From Chiloscyllium plagiosum (Eukaryota), in contig NC_057719.1 in assembly GCF_004010195.1 (NCBI RefSeq), forward strand, positions 35,154,137 through 35,218,136: 64,000 bases of DNA, given 5' to 3'. The notes under the pieces are model-generated. The model made no database searches. It saw only the letters and a program-made list of their open reading frames with translations, and was not told the origin of the DNA. Position 1 is the stretch's first letter. Every line of letters begins with the position of its first letter. The position numbers and the translations under genes were made by a program. Of the stretch, positions 99 to 63,338 are shown one piece after another.

Positions 99-560
99 CA
101 AGTGAAGTTCATTGCAAGCTGGACCTCATCATCCACAAAGATACCAATATGGAGTTTCACAATTTCAGAACATGAACATCTTCCTCCAGGTTTGCTGGCC
201 ACCCCCAACAAAGTTGATCCTGATTTGTATGGTTTGCTCCCAGCACAGCCAACCCATTTTCAAATATTCACAGTGCCCAGTTAGCATTTTGCTCTCTTAG
301 TTTATCATCAGCAATCCCTTTGTCTGCTTCTCTTTATTCTCTCTCTCAGCACGTCTCCATCAATTTGATTCACACTTTCCTCTCTCTCTTCCTTCTATCA
401 CCACTACACACCACACATTAAGTCATAAGCTAAATAACTATATTTCCCAACTGCTTTCAATTCTGACAAAAGGTCACAACATTCAGCATTAACTCTGTTT
501 TTCTCTTCACAAATGCTGCTGAGTTTCTCCAGCACTTTCTGTTTTTATGGCATCATTCAG

Positions 561-858
561 GCTTGAAAATGTGTTGCTGGAAAAGCGCAGCAGGTCAGGC
601 AGCATCCAGGGAACAGGAGAATCGACGTTTTGGGCATAAGCCCTTCTTCAGGAACCATACAAATCAGGTTCAACTTTGTTGGAGGTGGCCAGCAAACCTG
701 GAGGAACATGCTCATGTTCTGAAATTGTGAAACTCCTGAAGAAGGGCTTATGCCCAAAACGTCGATTCTCCCGTTCCCTGGATGCTGCCTGACCTGCTGC
801 GCTTTTCCAGCAACACATTTTCAGCTCTGATCGCCAGCATCTGCAGACCTCACTTTCT
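561..858. mobile_element. Fold-back PLE family-1 insertion with two hammerhead motifs and a captured 84-bp spacer
   Basis: Inverted arms ~565-654 and ~734-825; TSD CATCATTCAG at 551-560 and 859-868. Confidence 0.85.
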
Positions 859-1036
859 CATCATTCAGTCTATGACTGATACGTACAAACATTCACATCC
901 CCCACAAGGCAAGGGCATGTCCAGTATGAAAATCTTCCCTTGATATTGATCTTCATTCAAACAATATCTTGGTGCTACCCTCACTGAACCCCACACCAGG
1001 AGCCGGGGAATTAACAGTGACCATCAACTTAACTTG

Positions 1037-2171: not shown

Positions 2172-2227
2172 CTCTGCAGTTCAGATACAATCGCTCGGAT
2201 ATCGATGGTGTTGAATCGCGACTTCAT
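2172..2227 (-). CDS. NEMF: NEMF (Rqc2/Caliban, ribosome quality control) coding exon 1; the gene continues leftwards beyond the window
   Basis: The minus strand reads ATG AAG TCG CGA TTC AAC ACC ATC GAT ATC CGA GCG ATT GTA TCT GAA CTG CAG AG|GTACTG = MKSRFNTIDIRAIVSELQ. This matches the recalled NEMF N-terminus (human MKSRFSTIDLRAVLAEL) and ends at a GT donor. No exon 2 was found in 1-2171. Confidence 0.9.
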
Positions 2228-20600: not shown

Positions 20601-20966
20601 ATTTGGCCCATATCCCACTAAACAATCCAGATGCCTTTTACATGTTGCACTTGTACCTGCCTCCACCACTTCCTCTGGCAACGTGTTCCAAACTTACACC
20701 ACCCTCTGCATGAAAAAGTGACCATTGAGGTCCTTTTTAAATCTTTGCCCTCTCACCTTAAAACTATGCTCTCTAATTTAGTACTCCCACACTCTAGAAA
20801 AAATACTTTGGCTGTGTACCCTATCCATCCTCCTCATGATTTATAAACCTCTGTAAAGTAATAACAGGATAAAAACAATGACTGCAGATGCTGGAAACCA
20901 GATCTGGATTAGAGTGGTGCTGGAAAAGCACAGCAGTTCAGGCAGCATCTGAGGAGCAGTAAAATC

Positions 20967-21996: not shown

Positions 21997-23038
21997 TGCA
22001 GTCATCAATGTAGCAGAGGAAGAGGTGGGGAGTGGTGCCAACATAATTACGGAAGATGGACTGTTCTATGTAGCCAACAAAGAGACAAGCATAGCTGGGG
22101 CCCATACAGGTGCCCATGACTACCCCTTTGGTCTGGAGGAAGTGGGAGGATTAGAAGGAGAAATTGTTAAGGGTGAGGACCAGTTCAGCCAAACGAATGA
22201 AAGTGTCGGTGAAAGGGTACTGTTGGGGTCGTCAGTAGAAGAAGAAACGGAGAGCTTGGAGGCCCTGGTCATGGCGGATGGAGGTGTAGAGGGATTGAAT
22301 ATCCTTACCTCTATACCTATCCATACCTTACCTCTGTAAGGTAATCCCTTGGCCTCCTTAGGAAAAATGCCCCATCTTATTTAGCCTCTCCCTATAACTC
22401 AGACCAGTTACAGCAACATCTTTTGTGTACTCTCTCAAGTTTACCAACATTTTTCTTATGGCAGGGTGACAAGACTTAGATGCAGCATTCTGAACGTGGC
22501 CTCGCCAAGGTCCTATACAACCACAACATGACATCCCAACTCCTATACTCAATGCACTGACCAATGAAAGAAAGCATACCAAACATCATCTTCACCTGTC
22601 TGTCTGGTACTCCGCTTTCAAGGACCCATGTACCTGTACCCTTAGGTCTCTTTGTTCGGCAACATTCCCTAAGGCCCTACCAAAATGCAACACTAATTTA
22701 TCTTATCTAAATTAAACTCCATCCACCACTGCTCCGACAATTGACCTAACGAATAAAGGTCCCATAGTACTCAGATGATCTTTTTCACTGTCCACAACAG
22801 CACCTATTTTGATGTCATTTGCAAATTTACTAACAAATACCCATGATATTCGCATCCAAATCATTTATATAAATGACAAAAATCAATGAACCCAGGACAA
22901 ATCCTTTGGTCATAGGCCTCCAGTCTGAAAAGCAACCCTCCACCCTCCATCACCACTCTGTCTCCTATCTTCAAGCCAATTTTGTATCCAATTGGCTAGC
23001 TCCCCCATGTATACTATGTGACTTAACCTTACTAGCCA

Positions 23039-29260: not shown

Positions 29261-29721
29261 GTTGTTTCCTTTCTCATAGCTCTCTGGTAGAAAATTCCAC
29301 AGATTCACTACCTTCTGAGAGAAAAATTCCTAATCTCTGATTCCTGAGTTATCCAGGAAGGCAGCTTGGCAGTAATATGAGCAAGGATACTGTGAACATC
29401 CAGCTGAGTGCCGAATAAATGAGAGCTATGACAGCTAACAAAGGGCCTAGAGATGCAGCTTGCTCCAGTTCTTGAGTTGGTTATGTTTCCTGGAGTGTTC
29501 TTTCTACTGCATTACTTTGACGCTTGCTGGTGCTGCCCAAGTAACACTGAAGTGCAGAAATGACATGTTAGTGAATCAGACATTTGCGTTCTTAGAGGCT
29601 GGCGCATGTCAACTGTCACTCTCTGCAGACACTGGGTGTGTGAGGCTGGCACCCATGGAGCTGAAAATGTGTTGCTGGAAAAGCGCAGCTGGTCAGGCAG
29701 CATCCAGGGAACAGGAGAATC

Positions 29722-29749
29722 GACGTTTCGGGCATAAGCCCTTCTTCAG
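29722..29749 (-). ncRNA. Minimal type-I hammerhead ribozyme, intact core
   Basis: Minus strand AUUC-CUGAAGA-A-GGGC-UUAU-GCCC-GAAA-CG-UC-GAUU. Confidence 0.7.
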
Positions 29750-29769
29750 GAATGAGGAAAGTTTGTCCA

Positions 29770-30537
29770 NNNNNNNNNNNNNNNNNNNNNNNNNNNNNNN
29801 NNNNNNNNNNNNNNNNNNNNNNNNNNNNNNNNNNNNNNNNNNNNNNNNNNNNNNNNNNNNNNNNNNNNNNNNNNNNNNNNNNNNNNNNNNNNNNNNNNNN
29901 NNNNNNNNNNNNNNNNNNNNNNNNNNNNNNNNNNNNNNNNNNNNNNNNNNNNNNNNNNNNNNNNNNNNNNNNNNNNNNNNNNNNNNNNNNNNNNNNNNNN
30001 NNNNNNNNNNNNNNNNNNNNNNNNNNNNNNNNNNNNNNNNNNNNNNNNNNNNNNNNNNNNNNNNNNNNNNNNNNNNNNNNNNNNNNNNNNNNNNNNNNNN
30101 NNNNNNNNNNNNNNNNNNNNNNNNNNNNNNNNNNNNNNNNNNNNNNNNNNNNNNNNNNNNNNNNNNNNNNNNNNNNNNNNNNNNNNNNNNNNNNNNNNNN
30201 NNNNNNNNNNNNNNNNNNNNNNNNNNNNNNNNNNNNNNNNNNNNNNNNNNNNNNNNNNNNNNNNNNNNNNNNNNNNNNNNNNNNNNNNNNNNNNNNNNNN
30301 NNNNNNNNNNNNNNNNNNNNNNNNNNNNNNNNNNNNNNNNNNNNNNNNNNNNNNNNNNNNNNNNNNNNNNNNNNNNNNNNNNNNNNNNNNNNNNNNNNNN
30401 NNNNNNNNNNNNNNNNNNNNNNNNNNNNNNNNNNNNNNNNNNNNNNNNNNNNNNNNNNNNNNNNNNNNNNNNNNNNNNNNNNNNNNNNNNNNNNNNNNNN
30501 NNNNNNNNNNNNNNNNNNNNNNNNNNNNNNNNNNNNN
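29770..30537. other. Assembly gap (N run)
   Basis: Run of n. Confidence 0.99.
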
Positions 30538-31379
30538 ATATCCTACGAAGAGGCAGTCATAGCTGGGGCCCATGCGGGTGCCCATGGCTACTCCTTTTGT
30601 TTGGAGGAAGTGGGAGGATTGGAAAGAGATTCCGTGTTGATTCGGTCGCCTGAGATAGAAATAGAGAGGTCGAGGAAGGGGAGGGAGGAATGTGAGACTG
30701 TCCAGGTGAATTTGAGGTCGGGTTGGAAGGTGTTGGTGAAGTGGATGAACTGTTCAACCTCCTCGTGGGAGCACGAGGCGGCGCCGGTACAGTCATCGAT
30801 GTAGCGGAGGAAAAGGTGGGGGGTGGGGCCAGTGTAGTTGCGGAAGATGGACTGTTCCACATATCCTACGAAGAGGCAGGCATAGCTGGGGCCCATGCGG
30901 GTGCCCATGGCTACTCCTTTCGTTTGGAGGAAGTGGGAGGAATGGAAAGAGAAGTTGTTCAGGGTGAGGACCCATGGAGCATGTCCTAAGATGTTGGAGC
31001 CCAGTTTCCAAATTTTGGCATACCAGCGAGCTGAATCTGTCAGGTCTTCACTTTGACAAAACCTGACAAGAAATCCAATGTCTAGCTCATTTGGTGAGTT
31101 CGGAATTTTAGAAACCTGAATATTAAAAAGACGACTGTAATCACTGTTTTCAAGCAGCTTGGCATGTATTACTATACCAAAGGTACTCTATAAATGCAAG
31201 TTGTAATATTAGGTCATAAGAAATTAGAGTAGACTGGCCCAAACACATTCAAAAAGATATGCCTGATCTGACTGGAGCCTGAACTCCACATTCCTGCTGA
31301 GTTTACACCCCATAACTTTTGACTACTTTGTTGATATGAAATGTCTAGGAAGCCTTGAATGCATTCAATAACATAGATG

Positions 31380-32790: not shown

Positions 32791-32912
32791 AGCTGACAGT
32801 ACCTGACAGTATTCCTAGGCAGTATCCCATCCAAGTACTAACTAGGCATGAGCCTGCTTAGCTTCTGAGATCAAATGATATCGGGCATTTTCAGATCAGT
32901 ATGGGCATAGGC
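32791..32912 (-). pseudogene. 5S rRNA-derived sequence (pseudogene or SINE head)
   Basis: The reverse complement GCCTATGCCCATACTGATCTGAAAATGCCCGATATCATTTGATCTCAGAAGCTAAGCAGG...TTAGTACTTGGATGGGATACTGCCTAGGAATAC aligns along vertebrate 5S, with many CpG-type substitutions. Confidence 0.88.
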
Positions 32913-40020: not shown

Positions 40021-40576
40021 ATCAGACACATACAAAAAAGAAACTGCTGGAAAAGCTAGCAACATCAGTGGAGAGAAATCAGAGTTAACGTTTCGGTTCG
40101 GGTGACCCGTTCTCATAAAATATAACGTGCTATGTAACGACGTCTGTAATGTGACCCTTTTTTTAAAAACAGAAAAAACCCCAATGAACTGCGAATGCCG
40201 GAAATCCGAAACAAAAACAGAAAACGTGGCTGGATCCAAACCGTTAACTCTGCATTTTCCCCACGATGTTGACATTGAGTTTTTCCTAGCAGTTTCTATT
40301 TTTCTTTACTTTTTTAGTATTCATTGTGGGCTTCACTGGCTGGGCAAACATTTCTCACCCATCCCTAATTTCCCCAGAGGGCAGTTAAGAGTCAACCACC
40401 CTTGTGGTCAGATCAGGCAACTTCTTTGCCTAAAAAGAACAAAAACCAGATTCTTTTTCCCAACTATGGCAACAGTTTGATGGGAGCTAGGATCCTGGAA
40501 ACATGCACGGATTAACAACACGAGGAGCTGCTTTAGAATTTTGGGTTGAAACAGGGAACTAGGTTTTAAAAAATGT

Positions 40577-52438: not shown

Positions 52439-52660
52439 GATAAAAGCAAATTACTACGGTTGCTGGAATCTGAAACCAAAAGAGAAAATGCTGGAAAATC
52501 TCAGCAGGTCTGGCAGCATCTGTAAGGAGAGAAAAGAGCTGATGTTTTGAGTCGAATTGACCCTTTGACAAAGGGTCAGTTAGACTCGAAACATCAGCTT
52601 TTTTCTCTCACAGATGCTGCCAGACCTGCTGAGATTTTCCAGCATTTTCTCTTTTGGTTT
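52439..52660. mobile_element. Fold-back PLE family-3 insertion
   Basis: Palindrome centred on ccctttg-a-caaaggg (52568); TSD CATACYCCTAACCAAG at 52423-52438 and 52661-52676. Confidence 0.8.
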
Positions 52661-59432: not shown

Positions 59433-61350
59433 CATAGGAACCTCTATTATCTGAAGGTGATGGGTGGGCAGTTTTTCATTCGGATAATTGATTATTCGGA
59501 TAATTGATTTGATCTTAAAATGAAGCCATATTGCACATAATTATGTTAAAAAGCATGTTTACAGAGATTTTGTTTCATTCATTCATTAAATTTGTACAAT
59601 CACTGGATATCGCTTAAAAATTCATGATATTTTACAAACCAAATCACTTTTTGTGTAAATAAAATTCATTGGGATGGAGGTCGGTTATTATTTTTCGAAG
59701 AAAATATCCAGCCACTGTTGTTTGAGGTGCTGCTGTCTTTTATTTTGCAAACGATAACATTTGACAAAGATGCATCAACGTAATGGCATCAACTTCATCT
59801 TGTGTTTCATATCACTCCATGAAAAGTTGAAAACTGTCGATAGCTTTGTTCATCGGGACTGGAGGAGGTGTCAGTATCTGATTTTCCTTACCATCCACGG
59901 TGTCCATACTTTTCTGCTGTTTTTCCGCGACTATTGATTATCTGATCATTACTGAGTGTCTCTGTACCGATGTCATTGTCACAGTTTACCCAAACATCGA
60001 TCTCAGCCTCTACAAAGTCTCCTAATCCCAACTGTCTGCAGTTCTCGGTGATGTCAGTGGTTAGCCTTTGAGCTGGATGGGTGTCCTTTTCACTGACATG
60101 ACTACCAACATGCAAGCCACTCTACCAACACTCCACGACTATTGATGGCTTGATGCGGTCCCAAGGTTCAGCAATCATGAACAAAGCGTCCTTGACTGTG
60201 AATGCCTTCATAATTTCCTGCACTCCTTTGTCTGCACTGTCTTCACCAAGGGCAGCACGCAACATGTTAGGGCATTTTTTTTTCATTATTGCGATGATTC
60301 CCTGATCGAGCAGCTGTAACCTTGAAGTCATGTTTGGTGGTAAAAACAAGCACTTGATAGCTCCGTCTGGTGATTCTAATTGGCTGCCTTTCATAGTGTG
60401 TGCCCCTGCATTGTTAACAAGCAGAAGGCACATTGCTCAAGTCCAGCGCTTGCTTAATGTAACCTGATGACAGGTACAAATTCTTCCTGAAATCAGGATG
60501 ACGAAAGTGGATATGTCATCCATGCCTTGTTTTGTGCTCTGTACTTCATGGGAAACGAGTTCTTGAAGCAATGTGGATTAACATAACGCCCGATGCAGAC
60601 GAGTACTGGTGGAATTGACACAAGGGAAAATCGTAATGTAATTCTTTTGCATTTTATGTCCCGACACCTGCTTTTCTGCGGTGGATGCAAGTGTTTTGTC
60701 CAGCAGTGCACACCAAAACAATCCACTTTCATCAGCATTGTACAATTGCTCAGGTTCATAATTTCCTTCATGAATGATGGATTGTAGTTTCTGTCTGTAT
60801 CCTTCCACGGTGCTGTCATCCGCGGACTTCAGCTCTACCTAATGACGTGACGATGTTTGAAGCGCTGTAACCAGCCCAATGATACGCTGTGATCGGCCTC
60901 ACTGGTGTTGAGTTGTTCAGGGAACAACTGGCAGCTTTTTCTAGTATCATTGGGCCAGATTTAGGAATCACCATGCCTTGTTTTGTGCTCTGTGTTTCAT
61001 GGGAAATGAGTTCTTGAAGCAACGTGGATTAGCATAACGCCCGATGCAGACGAGTACTGGTGGCATTGACACAAGGGAAAATCGTAATGTGATTCTTCTG
61101 CTGTGAAAACCTCAAAACTACAGCTTGGTCGAGTTGCTCATCTTTTGCTGGCTTCATGGATTTTATTTTTAATGCACTTGAAGTATCACTTTGGTTGATA
61201 CATTTCTCAATCACTGGTCTTTCTTTCCTGATGTGGAACACTGTTGCTATTCCAATGTGAAATCTTTGCCTTTTCACCATGATCCAGGCACTTTTAAAAA
61301 CTTGCTTTTCTGTTAATTGTCACTGCTGTCCGCCTACTCTTCACAGACAT
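59433..61350 (-). mobile_element. Degraded Tigger/pogo-type DNA transposon (CENP-B-like HTH and DDE)
   Basis: Fragments DEQLDQAVVLRF, SGPMILEKA, LYNADESGLFW, LLLVNNAGAH and FLPPNMTSRLQLLDQGII; terminal-repeat-like TA-cataggaacctctattatctgaa at ~59431. Confidence 0.85.
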
Positions 61351-62704: not shown

Positions 62705-63338
62705 ATTGAATCCCTACAGTGTGGAAACGGGCATTTCAGCCCAACAAGTCCACACCACCCCTCCAAAGAGTAAACCATCCAGACCCATTCCCCCTATCCT
62801 ATATTTACCCCTGACTAATACATCCCTGAACACTATGGGCAATTTAGCATGGCCAATTCACCTAATCTACACACCTTTGGATTGTGGGAGGAAACTGAAG
62901 CACCTGGAGGAAACCCATACAGGCACAGGGAGAATGTGCAAACTCCACACAGTTGTCTAAGGCTGGAATCGAACCCGGGTCCCTGGCGCTCTGAGGCAGC
63001 AGTGCTAACCACTTTACATTTTACATTACATTACATTACAGTGTGGAAACAGGCCCTTTGGCCCAACAAGTCCACACCGACCCACCGAAGCGCAACCCAC
63101 CCATACCCCTACATTTACCCCTTACCTAACACTACAGGCAATTTAGCATGGCCAATACACCTGACCTGCACATCTTTGGACTGTGGGAGGAAACCGGAGC
63201 ACCCGGAGGAAACCCACGCAGACACGAGGAGAACGTGCAAACTCCACACAGTTGTCCAAGGCAATTGAAGCGGGAATTGAACCTGGGTCTCTGGCGCTGT
63301 GAGGCAACAGTGCTAACCACTGGACCACCATGCTGCCC
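62705..63338 (-). mobile_element. Two tandem HE1-type SINEs (~62705-63012 and ~63015-63338)
   Basis: Each has the tRNA head, central domain and LINE-shared tail; the second has a (TTACA)n tail. Confidence 0.85.

Follow-up and report, generated by a model that had tools for sequence, protein, structure and literature searches.

The left end of the 64-kb window (the whole stretch of DNA analyzed here) carries a young Penelope-like fold-back insertion whose two arms enclose a short foreign sequence, and the host gene at this position is NEMF. Exon 1 of NEMF was found on the minus strand, with its ATG at 2227 and its donor GT at 2171; a search with the 20-mer exon-1 peptide gave no match in Pfam, and no exon-2-like frame was seen in 1–2168. 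Because exon 1 occupies minus-strand positions 2227–2172, the whole insertion unit falls within NEMF intron 1, the location already proposed in a preliminary description made from the sequence letters. The features on which the analysis turns are as follows.

151..234, plus strand: donor of the captured piece, a 95% match to the spacer, in NEMF intron 1
461..549, plus strand: terminal remnant of a Penelope-like element, old and decayed, immediately to the left of the insertion site (nhmmer, matching 52476–52572 at E 0.0012 and 40034–40118 at E 0.0015)
551..560, plus strand: target-site duplication (TSD), left copy, 10 bp
561..654, minus strand: left inverted arm, without tail; 561–563 form an imperfect junction and the end is the AA microhomology (653–654)
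653..736, minus strand: captured spacer, an inverted copy of 151–234, of which 655–733 (79 nt) is unambiguously foreign
734..858, plus strand: right arm, beginning with the TCC microhomology, followed by the minimal hammerhead motif (GAAA changed to AAAA), the pLTR end and a tail of ~33–35 nt
859..868, plus strand: TSD, right copy, 10 bp
2172..2227, minus strand: coding part of NEMF exon 1 (peptide match to NEMF in PDB, E 0.0084)

Anatomy of the insertion unit

An inverted, truncated arm lies beside a direct arm (557–653 against 734–830, 96% complementary), and the two differ at 1 of 90 aligned positions. Their ends at the spacer fall within 1 nt of each other, and the tail is one-sided, with the right arm extending ~33–35 nt past the end of the left. 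As had been proposed, the spacer is the reverse complement of 151–234, with 4 mismatches in 84 nt and no gaps (blastn within the 64-kb window, E 1.2e-34); the mismatches, given as donor/spacer, are 176 A/G, 180 C/G, 204 C/T and 218 T/A. No other strong match to the 84-mer was found in the 64-kb window (next best E 0.55). The distance between source and insertion, first put at about 320–400 bp, was measured from the TSD as 316 bp to the near end of the donor and 400 bp to its far end.

The microhomologies claimed for the two junctions, AA (653–654) and TCC (734–736), held when the overlaps, of 2 and 3 nt, were fixed by the family's continuation past the arm end in longer copies from the window. 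Joins simulated under a null in which the cuts were free reached at least 2 nt of overlap at one end together with at least 3 nt at the other in ~0.8–1.4% of cases; a fixed-cut null (0.0006) was dropped as too lenient, and the free-cut null was used in its place. Judged by its sequence, the 84-bp event reads as a genuine, cleanly preserved record of a Penelope junction at which the template was switched locally.

Transcribed from the minus strand, the unit at 551–868 is predicted to form a 90-bp stem in NEMF intron-1 RNA (−216 kcal/mol, z −24.7), which makes this RNA a possible candidate substrate for editing, with no sign of function. The 84-bp event itself has no evident function, and its sole effect is the long hairpin added to the RNA of NEMF intron 1.

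Element family and other fold-back copies

The layout of the unit (inverted truncated copy, one-sided tail, TSD and minimal hammerhead) is that described for endonuclease-positive (EN+) Penelope-like elements, whose insertion units comprise, in the accessible parts of PMC8557442, PMC3846280 and PMC11167929, an inverted 5′-truncated copy, a one-sided tail of 30–40 bp and a TSD. The focal unit shares with them the head-to-head arms, the one-sided tail, the TSD (10 bp here) and the minimal hammerhead motif; it differs in its centre, a foreign sequence with an identified local donor, which is not described in those parts of the three papers. The hammerhead motif (extra base between 9 and 10.1, palindromic 15.2–16.2) was recognized by eye in the young arms by reference to the accessible part of PMC4209133; Rfam returned no hammerhead match at gathering score, and the GAAA is altered in the focal copy. 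Elements of this class are expected to encode a PLE-clade reverse transcriptase (RT) followed by a GIY-YIG endonuclease; a longer copy with a near-identical arm (29658–30975) contains an RT fragment, matched by Pfam RVT_1 at E 0.0024, below the curated cut-off, and three other frames gave no family match. TSDs of 14–16 bp were measured in 4 of 6 other copies tested, the remaining two being left unresolved by the script. Neither the arm nor the arm-spacer-arm pattern had a match in viral and metagenome contigs (0 matches).

As had been noticed beforehand, a G-to-A change at the CpG that precedes the hammerhead GAAA (GAAA to AAAA) is present in both focal arms. These two are the only changes among 28 CpG sites in seven young arms (chance ~0.016); the same G-to-A change at this CpG is present in two older copies in the window. 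In the neighbouring copy at 1036–1230, a private non-CpG change is likewise common to both arms. Changes shared between arms fit two cDNAs made from one source, or later conversion between arms.

The window holds 10 distinct head-to-head pairs, of which four are joined directly, and two further copies run into N gaps; the profile used for this survey was trained on window arms, so that its self-matches are circular. The survey of spacers in other fold-backs, envisaged in the preliminary description, thus covered pairs within the window: a local donor within 5 kb on each side was found for 1 of 6 centres tested, the focal one (score 140, against 16–27 for the others); of all 10 pairs, one carries such a patch. 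Among the other five centres, one matches long copies throughout, one does so over 53 nt only, and three are too decayed to assign. The joint 651 to 735 is made directly, with one letter between, in other family copies in three of the four public runs described below, and the arms of other copies ending at 651–654 and 733–737 show either direct joins or an 11-letter patch resembling the arm end.

Several further rearrangements were observed in the window. At the far junction of a gap-interrupted copy that starts at 20882, a short patch (22300–22335) reproduces 9 flanking letters and is in effect a small templated filler. Within a long copy of the young subfamily to which the focal insertion belongs lies a 92-bp direct repeat (30538–30629 and 30861–30952, 96.7%) beside an N gap, which from its sequence may be an RT slip or an assembly overlap. 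A 131-bp direct duplication (60520–60650 and 60971–61101, 94%) has no Penelope arm near it, 62715–63321 is a diverged tandem duplication of ~300 bp, and a decayed 5S rRNA-like sequence lies on the minus strand at 32791–32912 (Rfam RF00001, 55.5 bits).

Origin and age of the captured piece

Contigs from 4 of 24 listed public runs (organisms A and B, two runs each) were aligned to 100–1300 at 85% likeness. The donor 151–234 is identical to the window in both organism A runs, and its orthologue is present in both organism B runs, in which three pieces differ from the window at 17 of 622 positions. The donor region also has look-alikes: 9–12 contigs per run carry another letter at 151, with look-alikes at ~141–190, and one contig matches 145–272 with 17 substitutions and 2 gap letters (~86%). 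At 211–217 the depth is that of a single orthologous contig in three of the four runs, and mean depth at the spacer centre is 0.6–9.3, compared with hundreds of thousands to millions on the arms. Because of this single-contig depth and the low depth at the spacer, the 84-mer is neither a high-copy repeat nor a normal part of the young element, either of which would have undone the preliminary reading; the search of the window gave the same answer. Low cover counts here as a hole that proves nothing: in organism A it is seen at 674–714, and the unique stretch 879–1001 is also nearly uncovered in both runs; among the contigs listed, none spans the spacer, and depth there is 0.62 in one run (X1). 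By sequence, the local copy (95%) appears to be the best donor among the contigs listed, the best visible look-alike standing at ~86%.

The donor is probably not plain unique DNA and seems to lie within an old Penelope-like relic at ~96–549, which would include the terminal remnant at 461–549; near that remnant, at 516 and 548, hundreds of contigs have loose ends. A frame near ~140–180 in 96–549 presumably resembles the ORF end of an old Penelope copy; alignments of the donor frame to four in-window ORF ends were not significant, with 21, 50, 195 and 197 of 300 shuffles scoring as well. A relic with distant look-alikes leaves the local origin of the spacer standing. Young insertions lie at both edges of the relic (1–95 and 551–868). 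In a second run (X2), contigs break at 181–210, where depth rises from 10 to 19 as if two sequences converged at 181; the break may reflect heterozygosity at 180, which is among the four mismatch sites.

At the orthologous locus in the relative, the insertion is apparently absent. Both organism B runs contain a 1793-letter contig aligned at 874–1022, with 47 letters before the aligned part, which do not lie on the arm tail, and ~1600 after it. Counted from 519, an empty site would have a length of 47 letters; because this length fits, and because such a contig should not cross a high-copy arm, we infer from the contig layout that organism B apparently lacks both neighbouring insertions, the focal one and that at 1022–1245. 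The latter is a second young fold-back, with a 15-bp TSD and arms joined inside the hammerhead stem.

The divergence between spacer and donor (4/84) did not differ significantly from that between the arms (1/90; Fisher P = 0.20), from the divergence of the locus between organisms A and B (17/622; P = 0.20) or from the non-CpG rate of the arms (P = 0.07), and one date therefore suits all parts of the unit. An excess of mismatches as a mark of error-prone copying was rejected on the same comparisons (P = 0.07–0.20). The change at 218 belongs to the spacer side, because the organism B runs show no T-to-A there. Those at 176 and 180 together perfect a small hairpin in the spacer (predicted −3.6 versus −1.1 kcal/mol) and may represent a single event.

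Completion of the insertion and its precedents

The preliminary description attributed the spacer to a jump, during integration, of the element's RT or a repair polymerase onto local DNA or onto NEMF intron-1 pre-mRNA. Local copying is upheld by the close donor, the microhomologies, the intact TSD and the apparent absence from the relative. Timing during integration is likely, and later repair of a palindrome centre would give the same anatomy.

With slightly better than even confidence, we favor a model in which each nicked strand primed one cDNA and a patch copied from DNA nearby sealed the two together. A purified Penelope-like protein from anole nicks and extends both strands, and its reverse transcription starts at two sites separated by the tail, while the later steps of insertion are left open in vitro (accessible part of PMC11167929). 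Because this protein primes on both strands, two cDNA ends would come to face each other. In the reading favored here, the endonuclease would nick both strands ~10 bp apart, and each 3′ end would prime reverse transcription on the element RNA, the outer start giving the right arm with its tail and the inner start the tailless left arm, with both cDNAs halting at the hammerhead's upstream edge. Rather than being joined to its partner at once, one cDNA end would pair by 2–3 bases to DNA 316–400 bp to the left, be extended by ~80 nt, release and pair by 2–3 bases to the other cDNA end. In the simplest geometry, the left-arm cDNA would snap back on its own top strand, exposed by 5′ resection, which would explain why the copy is inverted and comes from the left side. 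A host end-joining polymerase and the element's own RT are the candidate enzymes. None of the four changes (0/4) is the minus-strand A-to-G expected from RNA editing, which supports a DNA template.

Several observations weigh against this favored reading. The donor is far, and the insert long, for patches of the L1 or Pol theta kind. A left-arm snap-back would have passed over three better pairing sites of 5 nt (181, 377 and 389) in favor of a common 2-nt site, present at 13% of positions. For the right-arm end, by contrast, 96–560 offers just two GGA sites, and the match falls on one of them, as would suit priming by the right arm on a minus-strand template. The TSD is intact, and in twin-primed L1 insertions an intact TSD is taken as protection from end processing (accessible part of PMC11702581). 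Finally, the event is single, the five other centres tested lacking a local donor, and the spacer is spanned by none of the contigs listed.

The minus-strand template leads to an alternative that we regard as unlikely, in which the element's RT ran off its RNA on the right arm and onto either the nascent RNA of NEMF intron 1 or the sense DNA strand that transcription displaces, copied ~80 nt and was joined to the left arm. NEMF lies on the minus strand, the strand that a right-arm cDNA needs as template, and no match in 96–560 is longer than the one used by the right-arm end. No resection would be needed, so that the intact TSD and the distance would pose no problem, and retroelement RTs are known to jump between RNAs (accessible parts of PMC11371274 and PMC13174262). 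Against this, snap-back on DNA fits the polarity equally well; the copy contains no spliced junction and no change of the editing type, and neither of its ends coincides with a splice site, the intron beginning at 2171. Moreover, most near-gene sequence is intronic, and a donor within an intron is therefore to be expected in any case. Orientation was considered as a means of telling an RNA from a DNA template and was rejected by reasoning, as both fit; because the inverted orientation suits both geometries, this one event does not distinguish polymerase or template.

Rather less likely still is a two-step history, in which a near-perfect palindrome formed first and later, in hairpin or cruciform form, broke at its centre; host end-joining would have filled the break with local DNA, and the spacer would then have stabilized the structure. 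The arms do end within 1 nt of each other at a point where other copies are joined directly, and, according to the accessible part of a review (PMC8701086), perfect palindromes suffer central breaks and are stabilized by short spacers; at least one of the four changes, that at 218, lies on the spacer side, as error-prone repair would give. Yet spacer and donor have diverged at least as much as the two arms, and so the spacer is not visibly younger. Products of centre breaks are mostly deletions (93% in a mouse line; same source), whereas no arm sequence has been lost here, and four copies in the window persist as direct joins.

It is improbable that the spacer derives from a different copy of the old repeat family, or was carried with the element from its source locus, the nearby match then being family resemblance. 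The look-alikes of the donor region would suit such a source, but at the 85% threshold single-contig depth at 211–217 and the low depth at the spacer centre speak against it, as does the gap between the best look-alike and the local copy; longer copies in the window, furthermore, carry other sequence past the arm end, and the spacer is thus not normal internal sequence. That a chimeric or mis-joined read made the inverted copy is very hard to credit: the want of a spanning contig among those listed and the low X1 depth would allow it, but holes in cover are uninformative, both junctions sit on microhomologies inside a TSD-bounded unit, and an artefact should be an exact copy of the donor, where four substitutions are seen while two runs match the donor exactly.

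Comparable events are on record in other systems. In the rotifer Adineta vaga, host sequences between Penelope pLTRs have been read as trans-mobilized, or as a spacer of 0.9–1.5 kb before the 3′ pLTR (accessible part of PMC3846280). The two cases share unrelated non-coding sequence between pLTRs within TSD bounds; they differ in that the accessible part of that paper names no donor beside the site, whereas the donor here is 316 bp away and the insert looks like a junction patch. Transduction or trans-mobilization moves cargo to a new locus, often in many copies, but the present donor adjoins the site, and depth at the spacer centre does not exceed that of a single copy. For L1, 22 templated insertions are described, typically <250 bp and copied from within 15 bp of the site (accessible part of 10.1101/2024.08.27.596794), and three insertions carry sequence templated near the site (accessible part of PMC11702581). 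The focal unit resembles these in using a nearby non-element template of <250 bp within TSD bounds, and twin-primed L1 in its two primed ends and microhomology join; in L1, by contrast, templates typically lie at most 15 bp away and twin priming copies two adjacent parts of the RNA, whereas both arms here copy the same part. At R2 5′ junctions, cDNA snaps back onto nearby rDNA (accessible part of PMC11371274), so that, as proposed here, additional synthesis starts from the 3′ end of a cDNA on genomic DNA nearby and yields an inverted piece; those insertions differ in being engineered, one-armed rDNA insertions in which the cDNA mostly snaps back on itself.

Inserts made by Pol theta are mostly <25 bp, lie near the break, are error-prone and are in some cases inverted (accessible parts of PMC5068794 and PMC13596132), and ~85% of those in worms prime within 10 bp (accessible part of PMC5068794). 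They share with the focal patch a short microhomology on either side, inverted copying from the same end of the break and possible copying errors. Since their typical size and distance do not extend to an insert of 79–84 nt from 316 bp away, we do not file the patch as a Pol theta insertion. The focal patch works like a templated junction insertion, an event of known kind, varied in its host element and above all unusual in its donor distance. The mechanism of local templated duplication put forward in the preliminary description is in this way partly supported and, given the L1, R2 and Pol theta precedents, not new in kind. Our literature search, which lay outside most subscription papers and the older Penelope reviews, turned up no paper in which the spacer of a Penelope fold-back is assigned a local donor.

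A broader proposal, that Penelope-type RT leaving its RNA at the hammerhead edge routinely jumps to the nascent transcript or to transcription-exposed DNA within ~0.3–1.5 kb, we consider doubtful. If it were true, this very abundant family would repeatedly generate local inverted duplications reaching well beyond L1 and Pol theta patches, and would preserve a natural, countable archive of the way in which Penelope insertions are finished. That completion is stated to be unresolved in the accessible part of PMC11167929, and a patch with a known donor bears on this step: a patch between cDNA ends implies that the ends were free and extendable before joining, which favors twin priming and end-joining over self-priming on antisense RNA. 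Arm depths of millions in public contigs make a genome-wide count of patches, with their distances and strands, feasible, and such a count would separate DNA from RNA templates; the main value of the focal event lies in the genome-wide count that it invites.
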